DNA of 64,000 bases from Candidatus Latescibacterota bacterium. Lineage in GTDB: Bacteria; Latescibacterota; UBA2968; UBA8231. The stretch spans positions 3,296,001 to 3,360,000 of the forward strand of contig CBDETK010000013.1 of assembly GCA_965242865.1 (NCBI GenBank), given 5' to 3'. Of this stretch, positions 29,897 to 40,236 are shown piece after piece; positions within the stretch are counted from its first letter, which is position 1; every line of letters begins with the position of its first letter. The translations under genes were made by a program, and so were the position numbers. A model generated the notes under the pieces. That model saw nothing but the letters and a program-made list of their open reading frames with translations, had not been told where the DNA came from and did no database searches.

Positions 29897-31309
29897 GTGC
29901 CCCCCAACGTCAGCGAAGAACATGTACGCAAGATAGTCGAAGAAGTGGTGCAGCGGGTCGTCAGCGGCCAAGATGGTCGCGACGGGGAGGACACCGGCGT
30001 CTTCGCGACAATCGACGCGGCGGTCCAAGGCGCAACCCGCGCCCAGCAGCAGTTGGTTGCCTCGTCGCTGGAGAAGCGCAAAAAGATCGTCGAGGCCCTC
30101 CGGCAGACAGCGCACGCCCATGCCGAGGAGTTTTCGCGCCGGGCCTTGGTCGAGACCGGGATGGGGCGGTTGGAAGACAAGATCGTCAAGCACCAAGTCG
30201 CGGCCGATACAACGCCCGGCGTCGAAGACCTAGAGGCGACTTCGTGGACCGGCGACCACGGGCTGACCGTCGTCGAAATGGCCCCCTACGGGGTCATCGG
30301 CGCAGTCACCCCATCGACCCATCCCGTGCCGACGATGGTCAACAACGCGATATGCATTGTCGCCGCGGGCAACTCGGTCGTCTTCAACGTCCATCCCGCG
30401 GGCAAAAAGGTCTCTATGTTTGCGGTGGGCTTGATCAATCGAGCCATCGTCGCGGCTGGTGGACCGGCCAATTTGGTGACCGCGGTCCAAACGCCGACCC
30501 TTGAAACCGCCAACGAATTGTTCAACCACCCGGATATCCGCCTCCTGCTGGTCACAGGCGGGCCGGGAGTGGCCAAGGCCGCGCTGGCCAGCCCCAAAAA
30601 GGCCATCGTCGCCGGCCCGGGCAATCCGCCGGTAGTGGTCGATGAAACGGCCGATTTGGCCCAAGCCGCGCGCGACATCATCGACGGAGGCGGCTTCGAC
30701 AACAACATTCTCTGCATCGGCGAGAAGCAGGTCTTTGCCGTCGCTTCAATTGCCGACGAACTCAAGCGGCTGATGGTCCAGTACAATGCCTACGAGCTCG
30801 ATGCGCGGCAGATCGAAGCCCTCGCGCAGGTGGCCTTTGTGCAAGGGCCGGACGGGGAGTGCGCAGCCAACCGCGAACTGGTGGGGCGCGACGCGGCCGT
30901 GCTGGCCGACCGCATCGGCCTCCGGCTCGATTCGTCGTTGCGCCTGCTCATTGGCGAGACCGACGCCAATCACGTTTTTGTGCGCGAGGAGCAGATGATG
31001 CCCTTTTTGCCGATCGTGCGGGTCCCCAACATCGATCAAGCCATCCGCGAGGCCGTCATCTCCGAGCACGGCTACGGGCACACGGCCGTGATCCATTCGC
31101 GCAACATCGAAAACATGCACAACATGGCCCGCGCCGTAGATACCACTATTTTCGTCAAGAATGGCCCTTCCTATGCCGGGGTTGGCTTGGGCGGCGAGGG
31201 CTTTGGGACCTACTCCATCGCCGGGCCTACGGGCGAGGGCCTGACCTCGCCGCGCACCTTTACCCGCCAGCGCCGCTGCGCCCTCGTTGATTACTTCCGC
31301 ATCGCCTGA
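29897..31309 (+). CDS. BMC acylating aldehyde dehydrogenase (EutE/PduP family) with N-terminal encapsulation peptide
   Basis: SEEHVRKIVEEVVQRV helix; TPSTHP, VTGG, AGPGNPP, FDNNILC (catalytic Cys), TGEG. Confidence 0.93.
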   Translation: MPPNVSEEHVRKIVEEVVQRVVSGQDGRDGEDTGVFATIDAAVQGATRAQQQLVASSLEKRKKIVEALRQTAHAHAEEFSRRALVETGMGRLEDKIVKHQVAADTTPGVEDLEATSWTGDHGLTVVEMAPYGVIGAVTPSTHPVPTMVNNAICIVAAGNSVVFNVHPAGKKVSMFAVGLINRAIVAAGGPANLVTAVQTPTLETANELFNHPDIRLLLVTGGPGVAKAALASPKKAIVAGPGNPPVVVDETADLAQAARDIIDGGGFDNNILCIGEKQVFAVASIADELKRLMVQYNAYELDARQIEALAQVAFVQGPDGECAANRELVGRDAAVLADRIGLRLDSSLRLLIGETDANHVFVREEQMMPFLPIVRVPNIDQAIREAVISEHGYGHTAVIHSRNIENMHNMARAVDTTIFVKNGPSYAGVGLGGEGFGTYSIAGPTGEGLTSPRTFTRQRRCALVDYFRIA

Positions 31310-31623
31310 TGCTCTTGGGCCAAGTCAAAGGGCACTTGGTTGCCACGGCCAAGGTCCCGAGCCTCAACGGCAAGAAGCTCTTAGTCGTCGAAATCGCGTC
31401 GGTGCGCGAGCACGGTCTGGTGCTGACGGGGCGGGATATGGTCTGCATTGACGCGGTACAGGCGGGCATGGGCGAGCTGGTAATTTTGGTGCAGGGCAGC
31501 TCGTCGCGGATCGCCCCAGACTTGGGCGATGTGCCAACCGACGCGGTAATCGTCGGGATCGTCGATTCGCTACAGGCCATGGGCAAGGATTTCGACTGTC
31601 GGCAACTGAGTCGCGAAAGATAA
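31309..31623 (+). CDS. BMC vertex protein (EutN/CcmL, BMC-P)
   Basis: MLLGQVKGHLVAT.K...DAVQAGMGE...GSSSR...DAVIVGIVD. Confidence 0.93.
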   Translation: MLLGQVKGHLVATAKVPSLNGKKLLVVEIASVREHGLVLTGRDMVCIDAVQAGMGELVILVQGSSSRIAPDLGDVPTDAVIVGIVDSLQAMGKDFDCRQLSRER

Positions 31624-31625
31624 GC

Positions 31626-32306
31626 ATGGGCGTTGCACCCGCGGCCGGATTGGACCGCAAGCAGATCGAGGGGCTGGTGCGCCGGGTGGTGTACGATCAC
31701 CTGCCGGACGCCCAGCTCGCGCAGGCACCGCCCGCCCCGAGGCTGGTCGTCAATATGTCCGCCCGCCACGTCCACCTCAACCAAGAGGGGCTCGACGCGC
31801 TCTTTGGCGCGGGGGCCGAGTTGACCGTCCAGAAGGCCCTGTACCAAGAGGGGGCTTTTGCCGCCGAGCAAACGGTATCGGTTTTTGGGCCGCGCAAGCA
31901 GGTGATTCCCAACGTCCGCATCCTCGGCCCCTTGCGCGATTACAACCAAGTGGAGCTGGCTTTTACGGACGCCCGCTTCTTGGGCATTGACGCGCCAGTG
32001 CGGCTCAGCGGCCACATCGACGGGACGCCCGGCTGCTACTTGGTCGGGCCGGCCGGGGGGCTAACGCTCCACCGCGGCGTGATCCGGGCCGCCCGCCACG
32101 TCCACCTAAACCCGGCCGAGGCCGCGTACTACGAGGTCGGCCCGGGGGACTTGCTGCGGCTGGTGGTAGAAAGCGAGCAGGGCGGAGTGCTCGAAGGGTT
32201 GATCTGCCGAGTCGGCGACCGCGAGCACTTGGAGGTTCACATCGACACGGACGAGGGCAATGCGATTGATTTGGTACATGCCCGCAAGGTATATTTGGAG
32301 CGTTAA
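31626..32306 (+). CDS. pduL: PduL phosphate acyltransferase with encapsulation peptide
   Basis: DRKQIEGLVRRVV; SARHVHL, RILGPLR, AARHVH, HIDTDEGNA. Confidence 0.93.
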   Translation: MGVAPAAGLDRKQIEGLVRRVVYDHLPDAQLAQAPPAPRLVVNMSARHVHLNQEGLDALFGAGAELTVQKALYQEGAFAAEQTVSVFGPRKQVIPNVRILGPLRDYNQVELAFTDARFLGIDAPVRLSGHIDGTPGCYLVGPAGGLTLHRGVIRAARHVHLNPAEAAYYEVGPGDLLRLVVESEQGGVLEGLICRVGDREHLEVHIDTDEGNAIDLVHARKVYLER

Positions 32307-32343
32307 ACGCAACAATCCGCACAATTACTTCAGGAGGTAAGGG

Positions 32344-32907
32344 ATGTCGGATGCAATAGGCATGGTAGAAACCGTGGGGCTGGTCGGAGTCGTCGAGGCC
32401 GGCGACGCCATGGCCAAGGCCGCCAGCGTCCAGCTTTTGGGCTGGGATCGCGTCGGCTCCGGCTTGGTGACAGTGTTTTGCTCGGGCGACGTGGCAGCCG
32501 TTAAGTCGGCCGTGGACGCCGGTTCAACCGCCGCGGCCAAGGTCGGGGAGGTGCATTCGGTACACGTGATTCCCCGCCCGCACAGCGAGTTGACGGCCGT
32601 CGTGCCCGAGCGCGACGACAGCAGCGACAGCGACGACCGCATCCGCGCCTTGGGCCTCATTGAGACGAAGGGCACCATCGGCGTGGTCGAAGCGGCCGAC
32701 GCCATGAGCAAGGCCGCCGACGTGGAGATCGTCAAGCTCCAAGACATCGGCGGCGGGTACATCACCGTCATCGTCAGCGGCGACGTGGGCTCGGTACAGG
32801 CTTCGGTCAGTGCCGGTGCTGAATCGGCCGAGCGCGTGGGCGAGCTCGTAGCGCAGCACGTGATTCCCCGCCCCCACGACGATCTCGTCGCGCTATACTT
32901 GCAGTAG
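32344..32907 (+). CDS. BMC shell protein with two tandem domains
   Basis: Two copies of A(I/L)G(M/L)(V/I)ET.G...DAM.KAA...GDV...HVIPRPH. Confidence 0.93.
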
Positions 32908-32918
32908 AGGAGAGAACA

Positions 32919-33182
32919 ATGAAAGCATTGGGTATGGTCGAGACCCGCGGTTTGGTTTGCGTCGTCGAAGCCCTCGACGCCATGTTAAAAACCGCGGACG
33001 TGAGCTATGCGGGCCAAAAGCGCGTGGGCAGCGGCCTAATCACCGTACTAGTCGAAGGCGACGTAGCGGCCGTCAAAGCGGCCGTGGATGCGGGAGCGCA
33101 AGCCGCCCAGCGCATCGGCGAGCTGCGCAGCGTCCACGTAATTCCCCGTCCAACTGAAGGACTGACCGATCACCTTGGTTAG
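32919..33182 (+). CDS. BMC-H hexamer shell protein
   Basis: [19 protein letters not shown] pore loop, [15 protein letters not shown]. Confidence 0.95.
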
Positions 33183-33186
33183 CTAG

Positions 33187-33594
33187 ATGGCCGAGGCTTT
33201 GCACATCGACGTTCCGGTCGTCACCGGCGACGTGCTCGGGCGCACCCACCAGGGCGAGCGGGTCCTCAGCGTCTCCCCCGGTGCCATCCTGACGCCGACG
33301 GCTTGGGATTACATCCGCCAGCACCGGTTGCAACTGCGGCGCGGCGAGGCCGGCGAGGCCCCCGCCGACAGCGGTTGCGAGCACGAGGAATTTGGTTCGG
33401 GGTACGTTGAGCCAGCGCGTTGCGGCGATTGCGCTGTCCACCAGCGCAAGAAGGCCGGCGATGCCGCGGCGAGTTGCACCGGCTGCAATCGCTACAAGAC
33501 GCTTTTACAACAAATTGAGCAGGGCCAAGCCATCGCCCCAGAAGCCTTAGTTGAGCAGATCACCGAGCTAGTAATGCACCGGCTGGCAGACTAA
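33187..33594 (+). CDS. BMC-associated protein with Cys cluster and C-terminal encapsulation peptide-like helix
   Basis: GAILTPTAWDYIR; CGDC and CTGC motifs; PEALVEQITELVMHRL. Confidence 0.7.
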   Translation: MAEALHIDVPVVTGDVLGRTHQGERVLSVSPGAILTPTAWDYIRQHRLQLRRGEAGEAPADSGCEHEEFGSGYVEPARCGDCAVHQRKKAGDAAASCTGCNRYKTLLQQIEQGQAIAPEALVEQITELVMHRLAD

Positions 33595-33597
33595 GCA

Positions 33598-34176
33598 ATG
33601 GCCGGGGCAGTCGGCATGATCGAGGTGGAGGGCGTGGCCGCGGCCATTGTGGGGGCGGATGCGGCCTGCAAGGCCGCGGACGTGCAGCTCGCAGGCTGGG
33701 CATCGATCGGCGGTTATACCACGGCCTTTTTCACCGGGTCCATCAGCGATGTGGCCGCGGCACTGCAAAGCGGCGAAGAAGCCGCGCGAAGAATAATAGA
33801 ACACGTGGTAGCCGTACCCCTCCACCAACCCGCCGCGGCCTGTCGCCATTTTGTCGATTTTCCGGCCGGGGACCCCAGCGACGTTCCGGCTGGGGCCTTG
33901 GGGTTGGTCGAGACGCGCGGCTACGGGGTCCACATCCACACCAACGATCAAATGGTCAAGACAGCGGCTGTCGAGGTAATCAAGGTGCTGACGGTCCACG
34001 ACCGCGTGGTCTGTTCGCTGGTACTGGGCGACATCGGGGCTGTCACCGAAGCCATCGCGGTCGCGCAACAGCGGCTCGCCGGCTGCGAGCGCTTGCTGGG
34101 CACGGCCCTGATCCCGCAGCCCCGGCCCGAGGTCTTAGCTGCCTACGCCGGGCCGCTGGGAGCGAGCGGTGTCTAG
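33598..34176 (+). CDS. divergent two-domain BMC shell protein
   Basis: AVGMIEVEG..DAACKAA; ALGLVETRG..DQMVKTA..GDIGAV..IPQP. Confidence 0.88.
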   Translation: MAGAVGMIEVEGVAAAIVGADAACKAADVQLAGWASIGGYTTAFFTGSISDVAAALQSGEEAARRIIEHVVAVPLHQPAAACRHFVDFPAGDPSDVPAGALGLVETRGYGVHIHTNDQMVKTAAVEVIKVLTVHDRVVCSLVLGDIGAVTEAIAVAQQRLAGCERLLGTALIPQPRPEVLAAYAGPLGASGV

Positions 34177-35353
34177 CGGGGCAATCGGCGTCCTGGAGAC
34201 GCGCGGCATGGCGTCGCTCATGGCTTCCACCGACGCCATGCTCAAGGCCGCGGACGTGCAGCTCTGTGGGCGGCACGGCATTGGTTCGGGTTGGCTCACC
34301 GCCGTAATCGCCGGTCGAGTGGCTGATGTAGAAGCGGCCCTTGGCGTCGGCGAGGTCGAGGCGAACCGCACGGGCGAACTGATTGGTGCCCACGTGGTGC
34401 CGCGCCCGGTTGCGTCCGCCATGGACGCCATGCCCCACGCAGCGGGCCTCAGTGCCGAACAGGTCCCGGCCGGGGCGATTGGCCTACTGGAAACGCAGGG
34501 CCTGACGCCGCTCGTGGCAGGTGCTGACGCCATGCTCAAGGCCGCCCAAGTGACGCTCGGGGGTTGGGCCTTCATCGGCGGTGCCCTGTGCCACGCGCCG
34601 GTCTTTGGCGATGTAGCGACCGTGCAGACAGCCCTAGCGGCCGGCCGGCAAGCCGCCGAGCGGCTTGGCACCGTGTACGCGACCCTCGTTTTACCCCAGC
34701 CCAGCGACGGGCTAGGCCCGCTGATGCCACCTGCGCCGCCGGCCGCGCCGCGCTCCACCGGGGCCTTGGGCCTCATCGAGACCATTGGTTACGCCGCGGT
34801 CGTGGGCAGTGCCGACGCCATGCTCAAGGCCGCGGATGTCCAAATTGAGCGCTTGAGCATCGGCAGCGGCGGGCGGATCGCCGCGCTGGCCACGGGCCAA
34901 CTCGATGACGTGCAGGCCGCCGTGCGCGCCGGTGCCGAGTCCGCCACGGCCTTGGGGCAGCTCGACGCCTCGGCCATAGTCTCTGGGCCTGATCCCATGC
35001 TAGTAGCCCGCTTTGCGACCGCGCCCGAAGGGTTGGGGCCGGGGGCGCGGCAGGCCATGGGGCTGATTGAGACGCGCAGCACCGTGGCCTTGGTGCAGGC
35101 TGTCGATCGGATGCTCAAGGCCGCGGCCGTCGAATACGAGGGGGCCTATAAGGTGGGATACTACCTGACGGCCGCCGTCGTCCGCGGCGATGTCGGCGCG
35201 GTGCAAGTCGCCATAGACGCCGTAGGGCAGGCCCCCGTGCCTGCCCCAACCAGGGGGCCTGCCCCGCCCAGATCCCCAACCGGCGACTTGGTCTCGGCTT
35301 ACGCAATTCCCCAGCCTTACAGCGGCCTCGAAGGTCGCCTGCCGCACGTTTAG
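34169..35353 (+). CDS. BMC shell protein with four tandem domains
   Basis: AIGVLETRG, AIGLLETQG, ALGLIETIG, AMGLIETRS, each followed by D(A/R)MLKAA. Confidence 0.9.
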   Translation: MSSGAIGVLETRGMASLMASTDAMLKAADVQLCGRHGIGSGWLTAVIAGRVADVEAALGVGEVEANRTGELIGAHVVPRPVASAMDAMPHAAGLSAEQVPAGAIGLLETQGLTPLVAGADAMLKAAQVTLGGWAFIGGALCHAPVFGDVATVQTALAAGRQAAERLGTVYATLVLPQPSDGLGPLMPPAPPAAPRSTGALGLIETIGYAAVVGSADAMLKAADVQIERLSIGSGGRIAALATGQLDDVQAAVRAGAESATALGQLDASAIVSGPDPMLVARFATAPEGLGPGARQAMGLIETRSTVALVQAVDRMLKAAAVEYEGAYKVGYYLTAAVVRGDVGAVQVAIDAVGQAPVPAPTRGPAPPRSPTGDLVSAYAIPQPYSGLEGRLPHV

Positions 35354-35365
35354 CGAGGACGCGAA

Positions 35366-36520
35366 ATGATTCGGATTGACGATGCAGTGATTACCGCTCA
35401 GACCTTGGAGAGCCGCCTAGCGGGCGAACGGCAGGTCGAGATCGGCCCCGGGGCTAAACTGACGCCCTCGGCGCAGGATTTTTTGCGCGTCCAAGGCGTT
35501 GAGGTGGTCCGCCGGGAAGCGGGTCGCCAAGCCCCGCCAACGCCAACGCCAACACCAGCGGCTCCTCAGGCATTTGCCGGCATTTTCTGCCCCAATGTCG
35601 TCCTTTTCGACCGCCAGAACGCGATCAACCACGCCGAGATGGAGCGCTACATCAACTGGCTGATTGAGGTTGGAATCCACGGGCTGTATCCCAACGGCAG
35701 CACGGGCGAGTTTGCCCGCCTGTCGCGCGAGGAGCGCGGAGATGTGGTGCGATTGGTCTGCGAGGTCAACAAGGGGCGCGTCCCGGTGCTGGCCGGCGCC
35801 AGCGAAGCCAATGTGCGCGATGTGCTCGAAATGGCCGAATACTACGCCTCGCTCGGGGTGGATGCCATTGCGCTGATGCCCCCCTATTACTATGAGATTT
35901 CCCCAGAAAGCCTCTTTGAGTACTTCGCCGAAATCGCCGAAGCATCGCCGCTGGACATCCTGCTGTACAACATCCCGCAATTTACCCAAGAGCTGTCGCT
36001 GGACTTGATGGAGCGGCTCTTGCCCTACGAGCGAATCTTCGGCACCAAGGACTCCAGCCGCGACCTGCCTCGGCTGCTCAACACCATGCACCGCCTGCGC
36101 CAACAGCGATCCGACTACGTGGTGATGACCGGCTGCGAGGAGATCGTATTCCCCGCGGTGATGATGGGCGCCAGTGGGGGCACCATCGCCACTTCGGGTA
36201 TCGTCCCGGAAGTCATCGTCGAGCTGTACGAAAGGGCCACGAGCGGCGACGTGGAGCGGGCCCGCGAGCTCCAATACCGCATCCTCGACCTAATTAACCT
36301 CATGCTCTTGGGCGTCAACTTCCCAGAGGGCTTTAAGACCGGGGTGGCAGCCCGCGGCTTCGACGTAGGCCCGGCGCGCACCGCGAGCAGCGCGGCCGAG
36401 CAGGAGTACCTGCTCAAGCTAGAGGGCCAAATCAACTGCGTCCTCGCGGATATGGGCTATCCCGTCCGCGGTCCCCGCGCCTGCCCGCCCACCGACCTGC
36501 CATCGATCGTCGGGCGCTAG
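35366..36520 (+). CDS. DHDPS/NAL-family Schiff-base aldolase/dehydratase with N-terminal BMC-associated domain
   Basis: NGSTGE, PPYY, LYNIP, GTKDSS; N-terminal GAKLTPSAQDFLR domain and PTPTPTP linker. Confidence 0.88.
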   Translation: MIRIDDAVITAQTLESRLAGERQVEIGPGAKLTPSAQDFLRVQGVEVVRREAGRQAPPTPTPTPAAPQAFAGIFCPNVVLFDRQNAINHAEMERYINWLIEVGIHGLYPNGSTGEFARLSREERGDVVRLVCEVNKGRVPVLAGASEANVRDVLEMAEYYASLGVDAIALMPPYYYEISPESLFEYFAEIAEASPLDILLYNIPQFTQELSLDLMERLLPYERIFGTKDSSRDLPRLLNTMHRLRQQRSDYVVMTGCEEIVFPAVMMGASGGTIATSGIVPEVIVELYERATSGDVERARELQYRILDLINLMLLGVNFPEGFKTGVAARGFDVGPARTASSAAEQEYLLKLEGQINCVLADMGYPVRGPRACPPTDLPSIVGR

Positions 36521-37594
36521 ATGGCCCTCGCGAGCGCGGGTGTGCTGGTGGTCGGGGCCGGTATCATCGGCCGCTCGATAGCCTATTTCCTCATGCGGCA
36601 AAACGCGCAGGTCACCCTGCTCGACGAGGGCATCGCTGTCGGCTCGCCCACGAGCCGGGCCTCTTTGGGCGTCCTTACCCACTGCAACGGCGGCGACAAT
36701 CCCTACGCCGAGCTTTTGCGCGACGGCCATGCCCTACACGCCCAGCTAGCCCGCGACCTCGACGCAGAGCTGGGGGCGGACGTGGGCTGGCGGCCCCTCG
36801 GCGGCATCGAGCTTTTTGCCGACCCATCCGAGCTAGAAGCGGTATGGCACTTCAATCGCGCCCGCGGCTGTCGGGTCGAGCGGCTCGACGCGCGGGCCTT
36901 GCGCGCTGCGGAGCCGGCGTTGGCTGGCGGCGAGGGCCTGTACTTTGCCGACGATCACCGGGTGGATCCCGTCAAACTGGGCGCGGTGCTTTGGGCGGCG
37001 GCCGCCCAGCGGGGTGCGGCCGCCGCTTGGGGCGAGCGCGTCTGGCGCGTTGCCCAAGCGGGCGAAACCGTTGAGGTCGCTACCAGTCGCGGAACGCACC
37101 GCGCCGATTTTGCGGTCTTGGCCGCTGGGGCCTGGACCGGCGGCTTGGCCGCCCAGCTCGGCGCCCGAGTCGCGTTGCGCCCGGTGCGGGGCCAGCAAGC
37201 GCGTTTTACGGGTGCCCCACTGCGCCACCTAGTGCGGGCAAACGGACGCCACCTCATTCCAGACAGCGGCGAAACGGTCGTGGGATCGACTGTGGAGGAG
37301 GTCGGCTTCCGGTTGGCAACGACCCGCGCGGCCGCGGTGCAGTTCGCCGCGGAGGTCCGTGCGGTGCTGGGGCGGTGCTTGCCCTTGTCGCGCCAGTGGG
37401 CCGGCCTGCGACCCAAGCCCCGGGGCGGGCGTCCGCTCATCGGCCCGCTGACGGACGCGCCGCGGGTTTTTGTCGCTGCTGGGCACTACAAAAACGGCGT
37501 CTTGCTCGGCCCGATTACCGGCCAAATCGTCGCTCGCTGGATCGCCGAGGGCACCCCGGGGCGCGACATGCGCCGCTTTGCGCCCGAGCGTTGA
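36521..37594 (+). CDS. FAD-dependent oxidoreductase, DAO/glycine oxidase (ThiO)-like
   Basis: GAGIIG, AAGAW, PVRGQ, WAGLRP, GHYKNGVLLGP. Confidence 0.85.
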   Translation: MALASAGVLVVGAGIIGRSIAYFLMRQNAQVTLLDEGIAVGSPTSRASLGVLTHCNGGDNPYAELLRDGHALHAQLARDLDAELGADVGWRPLGGIELFADPSELEAVWHFNRARGCRVERLDARALRAAEPALAGGEGLYFADDHRVDPVKLGAVLWAAAAQRGAAAAWGERVWRVAQAGETVEVATSRGTHRADFAVLAAGAWTGGLAAQLGARVALRPVRGQQARFTGAPLRHLVRANGRHLIPDSGETVVGSTVEEVGFRLATTRAAAVQFAAEVRAVLGRCLPLSRQWAGLRPKPRGGRPLIGPLTDAPRVFVAAGHYKNGVLLGPITGQIVARWIAEGTPGRDMRRFAPER

Positions 37595-37627
37595 ACGTAG
37601 CTCCACCTAACACCGTTGAGGTTAAAC

Positions 37628-38569
37628 ATGCCATTGCAAAAAGAAGACCTACTCGCCGCGCTAAATTCGGTGACCTCCATCCCGGTGGTCCCCTTTCGCG
37701 GCGGGCGAATCGACTACGACGCCCACGCCAAGAACATCAACTACCTGATGGAAAACAACCACTTAGACGGCGGTCGGCCCCGGGTGATTGGCATCGCCGG
37801 CACCAGCTTGGTCCACCACATTAGCGCGGACGAGCAGGTGCGGTTGTTGGGATGTACCGGCGAGCTGATGGGAGGGCGCGGGGTGCTGATGGCCGGGATT
37901 GCCCCCAATCCGGTTGGGGATGCCGAGCGGTTGATCGAGCGGGAGGCCGCGCTCGAATACTCCCCGGATGTCTATCTCGTCATGCCGCTTACTGGCGTGG
38001 CCAATCCAGAGGGCATTTTTGCGTACTACGCGGATTTTGCCGAGCGGTTGGGGCGTGCGTGCGGAGCCAAGTTGCTCTACTACCTGCGCAACCAAGCCGA
38101 GCGCGAAACCGCCGTGCGGCTGATGAACGAGTCCGAGCACTTCGTCGGGCTGAAGATCGGCACCACGGTTGAGGACGTCGAGCCGATTGTCGCGGGGGTA
38201 AAAGAGGGAACGGCACTGGTGATATGGGGCGTGGGAGACCGCTCAACCGGGCCGGCCGAGCGCGGCACCAAAGGCCATACCTCGGGCATCAACGTGGCTT
38301 TCGCCCGCGCCTCCGACGCGATCAACAACGCCCAGCGCCGCGGCGATTTTGCGACCTCCCAGCAGATTGAAAACCAACTCGCGGCCCTGGAGGAGATTCG
38401 CTTCCGCAACGGCCGCATGTACAACTATTCAGCCGTAGTTGAGGCCATGCACTTGGGGGGGTTTAGGGATGTGGATGGCGGCGAGGGCGGCCCGTTCAAT
38501 CCGCGGGTGCCGGCCGAAGTCGCTGCGGAAGTGGCCGCGGCCATAGCCGACATTATGCACTATCACTAG
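37628..38569 (+). CDS. divergent DHDPS-family protein (KDG dehydratase-like)
   Basis: IPVVPF..G.IDY, LYYLR, VGLK; lacks the canonical GxTGE motif. Confidence 0.65.
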   Translation: MPLQKEDLLAALNSVTSIPVVPFRGGRIDYDAHAKNINYLMENNHLDGGRPRVIGIAGTSLVHHISADEQVRLLGCTGELMGGRGVLMAGIAPNPVGDAERLIEREAALEYSPDVYLVMPLTGVANPEGIFAYYADFAERLGRACGAKLLYYLRNQAERETAVRLMNESEHFVGLKIGTTVEDVEPIVAGVKEGTALVIWGVGDRSTGPAERGTKGHTSGINVAFARASDAINNAQRRGDFATSQQIENQLAALEEIRFRNGRMYNYSAVVEAMHLGGFRDVDGGEGGPFNPRVPAEVAAEVAAAIADIMHYH

Positions 38570-38868
38570 CCAACCCGGCGCAGCCGCGCCAGATAGGCGG
38601 CCCATTCGACCGGGAGCAGGTGCTGCTTTTGGCTGTTGCAGTGCTTGCAACAAGGGACCACGTTGGACTTGGCAGTTTGGCCGCCGCGGATGAGCGGCAC
38701 CACGTGGTCCATGGTCAGCTCTTCGGGCGCAAACGACTGCTCGCAGTAGTAGCATTGGCCAGCGGCCCGTTTGCGCTTCCACCACTCGGAGCGGCGCAAC
38801 CCCTTGGCCTTGGTTTTCTCTCGGGCGACGTGCTCGGCGTCGGCCGGGACGAAGTAGTTATTTTTCAT
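38566..38868 (-). CDS. HNH endonuclease
   Basis: CYYC, TMDHVVP, SNVVPCCKHCNSQK. Confidence 0.9.
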   Translation of the reverse strand: MKNNYFVPADAEHVAREKTKAKGLRRSEWWKRKRAAGQCYYCEQSFAPEELTMDHVVPLIRGGQTAKSNVVPCCKHCNSQKQHLLPVEWAAYLARLRRVG

Positions 38869-38926
38869 GGGAGATCAAGATGGCGCAGTTGTGAGCACCG
38901 TGCGAAGCCAATCACAAGTTCGGAAA

Positions 38927-39340
38927 TTACGCTGCTTGGTATCCCAAGTTCCACACGCGCAGGAGATCGCGACATCCCTGTTCAAAAGTTTGCGTAAAAT
39001 CGATTAACTGAATGGAAAACAGCGTCCAAGAAAGTTGCCCGTAGTTACAGGGTTGGTGCAAAAGGGGAATCATTTTGTTTTCAAAGTGATTCAGATGAAA
39101 AGAAAACATCAGTTCTTTCTTTACCCAAGTGGATCTCACTGAATTCGGCGATAAGACAAGCACAAACCAATCGCAGCGGAGAATCGCTTCACCAATTTCA
39201 TCATGCCATTGCTGGCCCCCAAGGACATTGGATCGACTGTACCAGACGCGAAGCCCATGCCGCCGCATCATGTCGACCAACTCTTCTACAAACTGCCGAT
39301 CTTGGTCAGAATGCGAAAGAAAAATTTCCGTTGGCAACAT
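38927..39340 (-). CDS. standalone TIR domain protein (TIR_2)
   Basis: IFLSHSDQD, LVLSPNSVRSTWVKKEL. Confidence 0.9.
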   Translation of the reverse strand: MLPTEIFLSHSDQDRQFVEELVDMMRRHGLRVWYSRSNVLGGQQWHDEIGEAILRCDWFVLVLSPNSVRSTWVKKELMFSFHLNHFENKMIPLLHQPCNYGQLSWTLFSIQLIDFTQTFEQGCRDLLRVWNLGYQAA

Positions 39341-39343
39341 AAT

Positions 39344-39790
39344 TCAAGAGATTGATGCAGATGTAGGCGGGGAGCTTGCTATATCGTTTTCCAGAATTGC
39401 CTGTGCGATTTGTTTAATCCCTTCTTCTTCCTCGTCGTATTCACCCATATCGATTATATGTAAGTGCCGAAGAATCCATGGAATCTCTTCTTTGGGTAGC
39501 TCTTCTGGATCGCCTACAAGGACGGGGATTAGGCGTTTGCGATAGTTTTGTTCGCCAAGAGCATACTCAATTTCCCGGCGTACCCAACTTGAACGCAGCG
39601 CGTCGGCGGTCAGGAGGACGACCATGGCTTCTGACTCTTTTAATGCCTGCGCTACCTTCTCCGTCAAAGTTTCCTCATACAGGATTTCACGGGTGGCATC
39701 CCACACGTCAAGGCCAGCTTTTTCTAAGCCTATCGCAACCTTCTTGACAAAAGGCTCATCCTTATACGCATGACTAATAAAGACTTTCAT
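39344..39790 (-). CDS. standalone TIR domain protein (TIR_2)
   Basis: VFISHAYKD, SSWVRREIEYA, LIPVL. Confidence 0.9.
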   Translation of the reverse strand: MKVFISHAYKDEPFVKKVAIGLEKAGLDVWDATREILYEETLTEKVAQALKESEAMVVLLTADALRSSWVRREIEYALGEQNYRKRLIPVLVGDPEELPKEEIPWILRHLHIIDMGEYDEEEEGIKQIAQAILENDIASSPPTSASIS

Positions 39791-39819
39791 AATCCAAACT
39801 ATCCTTTTCAACTTTTTAG

Positions 39820-40236
39820 CTACAAAGAGCACCTGCGAATAGCAGCTACGATGTTATTTGTTTGCCAACCAACCATTTCCTTGGCAAGGCACTGCACTTC
39901 AATCGGCACACGTTCTTGACCCCAAGGAGTAACTCCGATAATTGGCTTTTCATGGGATATGGCGATGGAGATTTCTTCCTGAATCCACTTTCTGTGGTTG
40001 ACATACATTCCAGAAACCACAAGAAAGCAGTTAATCGGGGCGATTTGTCGGTTAAGTGCTTGGCGTAGTTCCCCATCTGTCTTTGTTCCCAGTGGATCGT
40101 GCTCTGGAACTGAGTAATTGCGCCAATAGAAGTACGGTGCTTCATAGAGCAAACTCTCAAGGCGGTAGTACTCGGAGTTTTCGGCTCGACGCCATACATG
40201 ACTCAAAAAAAGATCATACATTTTAAGTTTTGGCAT
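39820..40236 (-). CDS. ThsB-like TIR protein (DUF1863/MTH538)
   Basis: LFLSHVW, NYSVP, GMY..HRKWIQEEI, KPIIGV.PWGQE; AAGGAGG RBS. Confidence 0.88.
   Translation of the reverse strand: MPKLKMYDLFLSHVWRRAENSEYYRLESLLYEAPYFYWRNYSVPEHDPLGTKTDGELRQALNRQIAPINCFLVVSGMYVNHRKWIQEEISIAISHEKPIIGVTPWGQERVPIEVQCLAKEMVGWQTNNIVAAIRRCSL

Follow-up and report, generated by a model that had tools for sequence, protein, structure and literature searches.

How can a shell protein with four bacterial microcompartment (BMC) domains be accommodated in a facet tile that has six domain positions? The question is raised by a metabolosome locus of a Candidatus Latescibacterota bacterium (GenBank assembly GCA_965242865.1), located in a stretch of 64,000 nucleotides that we analysed as a whole and refer to as the window (contig CBDETK010000013.1, positions 3,296,001 to 3,360,000; coordinates below are counted from its first nucleotide). 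The locus codes for a four-domain shell protein, labeled here Q, and, directly upstream, for a two-domain shell protein, labeled D; their domains are numbered Q1 to Q4 and D1 to D2 from the N-terminus. In the relevant passages of earlier reports, hexagonal shell components are defined as either BMC-H or two-domain BMC-T variants (PMC8217296, PMC4207490, PMC11585597, PMC9052549), BMC-T being a fusion of two domains (PMC8217296, PMC11585597, PMC9052549). Since Q has four domains, no homo-oligomer of it closes a ring. Based on comparative genomics and structure prediction, we consider it probable that D and Q together form an obligate 4+2 heterodimeric pseudohexamer. The two genes, which are likely to be translationally coupled, would yield D and Q in about equal amounts, and the two proteins would join 1:1 into one closed ring of six domains in the order D1-D2-Q1-Q2-Q3-Q4, with D filling the two open positions of Q's ring. 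In size, the resulting tile would match a BMC-H hexamer, but it would lack internal symmetry, with pore loops and edges that differ at all six positions.

The four-domain architecture of Q and its conservation

The original prediction, made from the sequence alone, described a 394-residue open reading frame (ORF) with four nonpermuted BMC domains that overlaps by 8 bp a gene with two more such domains. Both genes are found as described, and the Pfam domain count and the profile alignment agree with this description. With PF00936 (cut-off 24.5 bits), four stretches are matched in Q (231.4 bits, E 7.4e-70) and two in D (108.5 bits, E 1.6e-31), and each of the six domains exceeds the cut-off singly. 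All are collinear with the profile, covering its positions 1-75 (Q1), 1-75 (Q2), 1-73 (Q3), 1-59 (Q4), 1-67 (D1) and 1-75 (D2). Because the domains align from profile position 1, they are not circularly permuted, and the permutation that characterizes the BMC-T^sp, BMC-T^dp and BMC-H^p classes is seen in neither protein. The secondary structure of each Q domain in the AlphaFold2 (AF2) model is likewise the canonical beta-alpha-beta-beta-alpha-beta. D alone has the two domains expected of the BMC-T^s class, and Q, with its four, does not belong there. The best partial NCBIfam matches are the CcmO, EutM and PduT models, with EutM alone above its cut-off. All the pore-loop strings quoted earlier are present (GIGSGW, FIGGAL, IGSGGR and KVGYYL in Q; SIGGY and TVHDR in D). 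As for the Pro/Ala linkers, the description holds clearly for the linker between Q2 and Q3 and less so for the others. The inter-domain linkers are alike in length (about 16-20 residues), and Q carries conserved linker and tail motifs (MPH, LLPP and RLPH) that include M88-P89-H90, P187, F282 and L391/H393. A GGGAG motif stands 7-11 nt before the GTG start of Q and, together with the overlap of the two genes, makes translational coupling likely.

The shorter profile coverage of Q4 is due to a Pro-rich insertion. The insert, 36 nt in length with inverted arms of 12 nt, codes for a Pro-rich loop in place of the last part of helix 2 and is missing from 49 aligned four-domain homologues. At the same site, a contig from another study has 12 further nucleotides, so that the site differs among strains in multiples of three. 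We also considered this palindromic insertion as a repeated element and rejected the idea, as it is present in a single copy in the genome.

A word-index search, in which 7999 candidates were scored, identified 1004 relatives of Q at E <= 0.001. The best 120 of these were checked for domain number, using a hidden Markov model built from the window's nine BMC domains. The 120 proteins are 285-404 aa long (52-89% identity); those that are named are annotated as BMC domain-containing, CcmO, CcmL/EutN or hypothetical protein and come from metagenome-assembled genomes of Latescibacterota or Gemmatimonadota. Four domains were mapped in 117 of them and three domains in the other three (two short sequences and one partial match). 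We also compiled a set of 49 loci, 29 belonging to the window's genus and 20 to further genera of three families, in which the identity to the window's Q goes down to about 46%. Every one of the 49 encodes Q in one four-domain frame, immediately preceded by a two-domain gene. This recurrence, in 117 of the 120 best relatives and in all 49 loci, excludes a chance origin of the four-domain architecture.

The frame itself was examined in public sequencing runs, and contigs from three studies cover the D-Q stretch. Two runs match the window exactly and possibly represent its own source; a run from the third study gives identical pieces. A sponge-metagenome contig from the second study, spanning positions 33639-35353, differs by 28 substitutions and an in-frame insertion of 12 nt, and strain-to-strain indels come in multiples of three. 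Misassembly and loss of a stop codon, either of which, according to the original prediction, might have produced the ORF, are excluded by the independent contigs together with the recurring four-domain homologues. Homologues encoded as separate two-domain genes would, according to the same prediction, also have spoken against it; a split of Q into 2+2 genes was seen in no complete locus. Nor did the best 120 relatives (404 aa at most) include a six-domain fusion of about 586 aa. Longer relatives of Q, of 691-2000 aa, were not found either, by a search that is itself weak evidence. Wherever the two genes were seen, either their frames differ or a stop codon lies between them.

Several candidates for multi-domain genes were rejected. 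Long open frames (up to 791 aa) that looked like 2+4 fusions are out-of-frame GC-rich overlaps. Matches of 1.0-1.6 kb in Firmicutes, Acidobacteria and comparable groups resolved into runs of separate BMC-H and BMC-T genes (17 loci), and cyanobacterial matches of about 600 nt are presumed to be ordinary CcmO-type genes.

Separately from Q, we came across complete three-domain BMC protein families of 283-330 aa (P0131, P0132, P0134-P0136, P0138, P0139, P0141, P0144, P0152, P0155, P0184, P0189 and P0200). Some of them are present on several contigs and some are labeled Dehalococcoidia or Calescamantes. Two three-domain copies would total six domains.

Linkage of D and Q and their predicted assembly

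The D-Q pair is inseparable. The distance from the D stop codon to the Q start is within -8 to +14 nt in 48 of the 49 loci, with -8 in 32 loci, -1 in six and -4 in three; the remaining locus (L122) has a gap of about 175 nt. Of 168 genomes of the phylum, 84 contain D: 65 of 75 in family f1, 16 of 22 in f3, 2 of 31 in f4, and the window's own genome. Q at E <= 1e-20 is found in 91 genomes, with the same tallies per family and per genus plus seven weak matches in f10 and f14 (E 1e-27 to 1e-32) that cover about two domains. One of the 84 genomes with D (G096, in 980 contigs) has a weak Q match (E 1.9e-29).

The six domain positions are also individually conserved. In a domain tree built from 17 Q and 11 D sequences together with the window's BMC-H and BMC-T domains, Q1, Q2, Q3, Q4, D1 and D2 are each monophyletic (support 0.91-1.0). 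No odd/even pattern emerged from the tree when it was inspected for an origin of the six domains by triplication of a BMC-T. Each position has its own invariant pore-loop residues: G34, H36, G39 and W42 in Q1; W133, G137 and L140 in Q2; G234, G235 and R236 in Q3; K328, L333 and T334 in Q4; G33, W34, S36, G38, G39 and T41 in D1; V133, R136, V137, V138 and C139 in D2. The pore-loop consensus of D is GW(E/A)SIGG(F/Y)TT in D1 and LTVH(N/D)RVVC in D2. What the six domains do share is a lysine in helix 1 (K26, K124, K220 and K317 in Q; K25 and K121 in D), which is invariant or at least 90% conserved. The titles of PDB entries 4qig and 4qif ('edge mutation K26A', PduA) refer to this helix-1 position, and the edge lysine of facet tiles is thus found in every domain of D and Q.

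For Q alone, AF2 with a 50-sequence alignment produced a confident model, with a mean predicted local distance difference test score (pLDDT) of 90.1 and a predicted template modeling score (pTM) of 0.89. The sole poor segment is residues 358-370, at the Q4 insertion. Q1-Q2 superimpose on a synthetic BMC-H tandem fusion, PDB 6ner (Z 22.7, 2.0 A, 179 residues), and Q2-Q3 on EutL, PDB 4edi (Z 9.1, 2.6 A, 143 residues). We then consider the complex of D and Q, predicted from unpaired alignments of 22 and 50 rows, respectively. Its interaction score derived from predicted aligned errors (ipSAE) was 0.81, 0.76 and 0.73, compared with 0.00, 0.01 and 0.00 for three controls. The pLDDT of the partner was 88-90, and at least 90% of the contacts were common to the runs. 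In the prediction, D2 (residues 108-140) contacts Q1 (6-89), and D1 (5-42, 71-85) contacts Q4 (304-334); the Q2 pore residue 137 is likewise in contact with the predicted partner. Since D contacts both ends of Q, a closed ring D1-D2-Q1-Q2-Q3-Q4 alone fits the predicted contacts, and the predicted ring order is the order of the genes. The contacts with the lowest error (T44-Y109, W42-R136, H36-Y109 and E10-G108, Q residue first) involve residues that are invariant in both families. Residues conserved at 90% or more are enriched at the predicted interface, both in Q (23 of 43 interface versus 102 of 351 other positions, Fisher p 0.002) and in D (20 of 43 versus 41 of 149, p 0.025). Taken at the level of the predicted complex, these data suggest assembly of D and Q into a ring.

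A number of points weigh against this interpretation. Conservation across the whole BMC fold and kinship among the sequences confound the enrichment at the interface. Solved BMC hexamers and trimers are abundant, and the good score of the complex may represent memory of a generic BMC ring; the controls were unrelated proteins rather than the BMC-T or BMC-H of the locus. In calibration, 58 of 80 solved complexes and 2 of 110 mismatched pairs attained the ipSAE mark; these counts hold only roughly here because our alignments were self-made and unpaired. The complex was judged on scores and contacts rather than on model coordinates, and a two-domain structural match spanning Q3-Q4 is absent from the listed VIA-align matches. 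Furthermore, co-occurrence and adjacency of the two genes are also to be expected if D trimers merely work alongside Q. Finally, the runs listed for the D-Q stretch include no RNA run, and the support comes from genomics and prediction.

Known shell tiles and alternative assemblies

Among known shell proteins, the closest in layout is the BMC-T^s class (PduT, CcmO type), which forms homotrimers. D and Q share with it nonpermuted PF00936 domains arranged head to tail, short linkers and, in the proposed assembly, six domains per tile, and the BMC-T^s layout is exactly that of D alone. Unlike BMC-T^s, Q has four domains, and the proposed tile would be a 1:1 heterodimer of unequal chains without rotational symmetry. 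Both by structure and by sequence (E 1.8e-32), the best PDB match to Q is again 6ner, a tandem fusion derived from the Haliangium ochraceum shell, in which covalently linked neighbours retain the hexamer geometry. However, 6ner is engineered, with two identical domains and a threefold-symmetric trimer, whereas the six domains of Q and D are natural and all different. None of the 60 listed PDB sequence matches to Q has more than two BMC domains; among them, pure BMC chains reach at most 213 aa, and an entry of 342 aa is a capsid-CcmK4 fusion.

A natural tile made from more than one gene product is reportedly represented by the CcmK3/CcmK4 heterohexamers of beta-carboxysomes (Sommer et al. 2019, a study listed among the references of PMC8217296). 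Those are said to combine separate single-domain protomers in variable ratios, whereas D and Q are both multi-domain, and in a D+Q tile the 4+2 stoichiometry and the ring order would be covalently fixed.

For the window's phylum, the relevant passage of one study merely notes pfam00936 and pfam03319 genes in Latescibacteria (PMC4454575). In the openly searchable literature, a scope that leaves subscription journals and supplements outside, we found no description of shell proteins that naturally have three or four BMC domains. This type of locus may already be catalogued in Supplementary Data 2 of PMC8217296.

The alternative that survives best, though we regard it as unlikely, is that Q is independent of D. 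Its domains could be split 2+2 over neighbouring tiles, or three Q chains could form two covalently linked pseudohexamers and in this way staple the shell lattice, with D being a co-transcribed homotrimeric BMC-T. Twelve domains from three Q chains also fit six per ring, the length and layout of D are normal for a BMC-T, and the similar lengths of the linkers are silent on which junction stays within a tile. However, AF2 yields a single confident four-domain arrangement, in which Q1-Q2 and Q2-Q3 are placed like ring neighbours, and the predicted D partner contacts both free ends of the Q arc. D and Q are also found in the same genomes and abut in 48 of 49 loci, whereas the link of Q to the ordinary BMC-T is looser, the latter being absent inside 5 kb in 7 of 20 diverse loci. 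The original prediction had left the choice between an asymmetric 4+2 pseudohexamer and a linked double ring. Every test run favoured the former, including the adjacency in 49 of 49 loci, the matching genome tallies and the predicted ring (0.76 versus 0.01 for the best control).

It might also be argued that Q provides four-sixths of a ring and accepts D, BMC-T or two BMC-H promiscuously in the gap, resulting in mixed tiles. We consider this improbable. Family-specific invariant residues are opposed across the predicted D-Q interfaces, and D is never lost although in f3 and f4 the pair is encoded megabases away from other PF00936 genes. These observations have to be set against lateral interfaces that are common to all BMC domains and against the precedent that the reported CcmK3/CcmK4 heterohexamers would provide. 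We give a similarly small chance to the possibility that the pair forms no facet tile and acts instead as an internal scaffold, or as a former of strips or tubes, that organises the cargo enzyme of the dihydrodipicolinate synthase (DHDPS) family encoded next to Q. The tight link to this tagged enzyme (18 of 20 diverse loci) fits such a role, and so do the conserved MPH, LLPP and RLPH motifs of the linkers and the C-terminus, which are without a role in a plain tile, but all six domains have the edge lysine and the canonical fold, and the predicted assembly is a closed ring. Lastly, a four-domain ORF produced artificially, by loss of a stop codon or by misjoining of two BMC-T genes, can practically be dismissed, being already refuted by the same frame on independent contigs of other studies, by its recurrence among the best relatives and at all loci down to about 47% identity, and by between-strain indels in multiples of three.

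The metabolosome locus and the D-Q-enzyme cassette

The D and Q genes are part of a complete metabolosome locus on the plus strand (positions 29897-38569; Table 1). The genes for core metabolosome enzymes and shell components (aldehyde dehydrogenase, BMC-P, PduL, BMC-T and BMC-H) are directly upstream. The PRK15398 model matched by the aldehyde dehydrogenase is presumably that of the CoA-acylating EutE/PduP type. A whole-genome scan revealed nine PF00936 domains in total, all at this locus, and six of the nine belong to D and Q. The proposed tile would sit in the metabolosome facets, their bulk being formed by the single BMC-H, alongside the ordinary BMC-T and BMC-P pentamers.

Table 1. Features of the metabolosome locus (window coordinates)
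Feature	Coordinates	Strand	Evidence and remarks
Aldehyde dehydrogenase	29897..31309	+	NCBIfam PRK15398 match, 658 bits vs cut-off 403
BMC-P vertex protein	31309..31623	+	PF03319
PduL-type phosphotransacylase	31626..32306	+	PF06130
Ordinary two-domain BMC-T, 187 aa	32344..32907	+	PF00936
BMC-H, 87 aa	32919..33182	+	PF00936; the genome's only single-domain PF00936 gene
135-aa protein	33187..33594	+	Without a Pfam or NCBIfam match; first 52 aa similar to the start of the DHDPS enzyme
D, two-domain BMC shell protein, 192 aa, ATG start	33598..34176	+	Pfam PF00936
Domain D1	~33607-33825	+	Within D
Domain D2	~33892-34125	+	Within D
Q, four-domain BMC shell protein, 394 aa, GTG start	34169..35353	+	Pfam PF00936
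Domain Q1	~34178-34420	+	Within Q
Domain Q2	34472-34708	+	Within Q
Domain Q3	34760-34996	+	Within Q
Domain Q4	35054-35323	+	Within Q
D/Q overlap, 8 nt (D stop TAG, Q start GTG)	34169..34176	+	
Pro-rich in-frame insertion in Q4, 36 nt	~35225..35264	+	Strain-specific
DHDPS/N-acetylneuraminate lyase (NAL)-family enzyme	35366..36520	+	~52-aa N-terminal domain and Pro/Thr linker
FAD-dependent oxidoreductase, DAO family	36521..37594	+	Best NCBIfam match ThiO-like, under cut-off
Second, divergent DHDPS-family protein, 317 aa	37616..38569	+	

A gene of the DHDPS family directly follows Q in 18 of 20 diverse loci. The first 52 residues of the window's enzyme are similar to the N-terminus of the 135-aa protein (40% identity, E 2e-9), and this common region may be a targeting domain. 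The 135-aa protein, Cys-rich in its middle and amphipathic over a stretch at the C-terminus, is encoded between BMC-H and D in 13 of the 20 diverse loci; it may be a targeting or scaffold protein. The NCBIfam matches of the DHDPS enzyme (N-acetylneuraminate lyase, DapA and KDG aldolase) are all under their cut-offs, and its substrate is therefore not fixed by a family match. The combination of a DAO-type dehydrogenase, a DHDPS-type deaminase and an aldehyde dehydrogenase is reminiscent of bacterial hydroxyproline catabolism.

Seven of the 20 diverse loci, all of them in f3 or f4 (L110, L111, L115, L117, L118, L119 and L127), have D, Q and the DHDPS gene without aldehyde dehydrogenase, PduL, BMC-P, BMC-H or BMC-T inside 5 kb. 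Four closed genomes of f3 show some 2.2-3.4 Mb between the D-Q genes, on the one hand, and the two remaining PF00936 hits and a BMC-P triplet, on the other. Being apart from other shell genes in these families, D, Q and the DHDPS gene behave as a satellite cassette. The D+Q tile would most likely be a conduit or dock dedicated to the DHDPS enzyme. In its most specific form, this interpretation holds that D and Q make a fixed-order asymmetric tile, encoded by a mobile cassette and serving as the private gate or dock of the tagged enzyme, a combination that we put forward only tentatively. Its single pore would be lined by the six conserved loops, including His and Arg of D2, Arg of Q3 and Tyr of Q4, and the conserved linker motifs of Q could bind the 52-aa N-terminal domain of the enzyme.

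A few further observations concern the surroundings of the cassette. The genome has four PF03319 genes, one at the locus and a triplet about 2.1 Mb off; the triplet consists of three adjacent genes outside the window (contig C13:5462503-5463298). The N-termini of the aldehyde dehydrogenase (29897-29990) and PduL (31626-31720) show, by eye, an amphipathic helix-like stretch followed by a linker, resembling encapsulation peptides. Directly beyond the locus, on the minus strand (38566-40236), a gene for an HNH endonuclease is accompanied by three small TIR-domain genes in a row (TIR_2 and ThsB-like TIR). The GC content of this stretch is lower (0.54), and it may be a defence islet.

The D-Q pair offers access to a metabolosome that occurs in about half of the 168 genomes sampled from the phylum and is as yet uncharacterised, and a near-identical D-Q sequence is found in runs labeled sponge metagenome. 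If the proposed assembly is true, a natural tile in which a four-domain chain is joined to a two-domain chain would represent a new building principle for shells. It would have one asymmetric pore and six non-equivalent edges, and every position could be altered on its own, by evolution or by shell engineers, who at present approximate such a tile with synthetic tandem fusions (for example, PDB 6ner). Considered together with the three-domain BMC proteins of other phyla, the six positions of a tile would be partitioned as 1x6, 2x3, 3x2 and 4+2, which, if true, exceeds the current three-class taxonomy of shell proteins.

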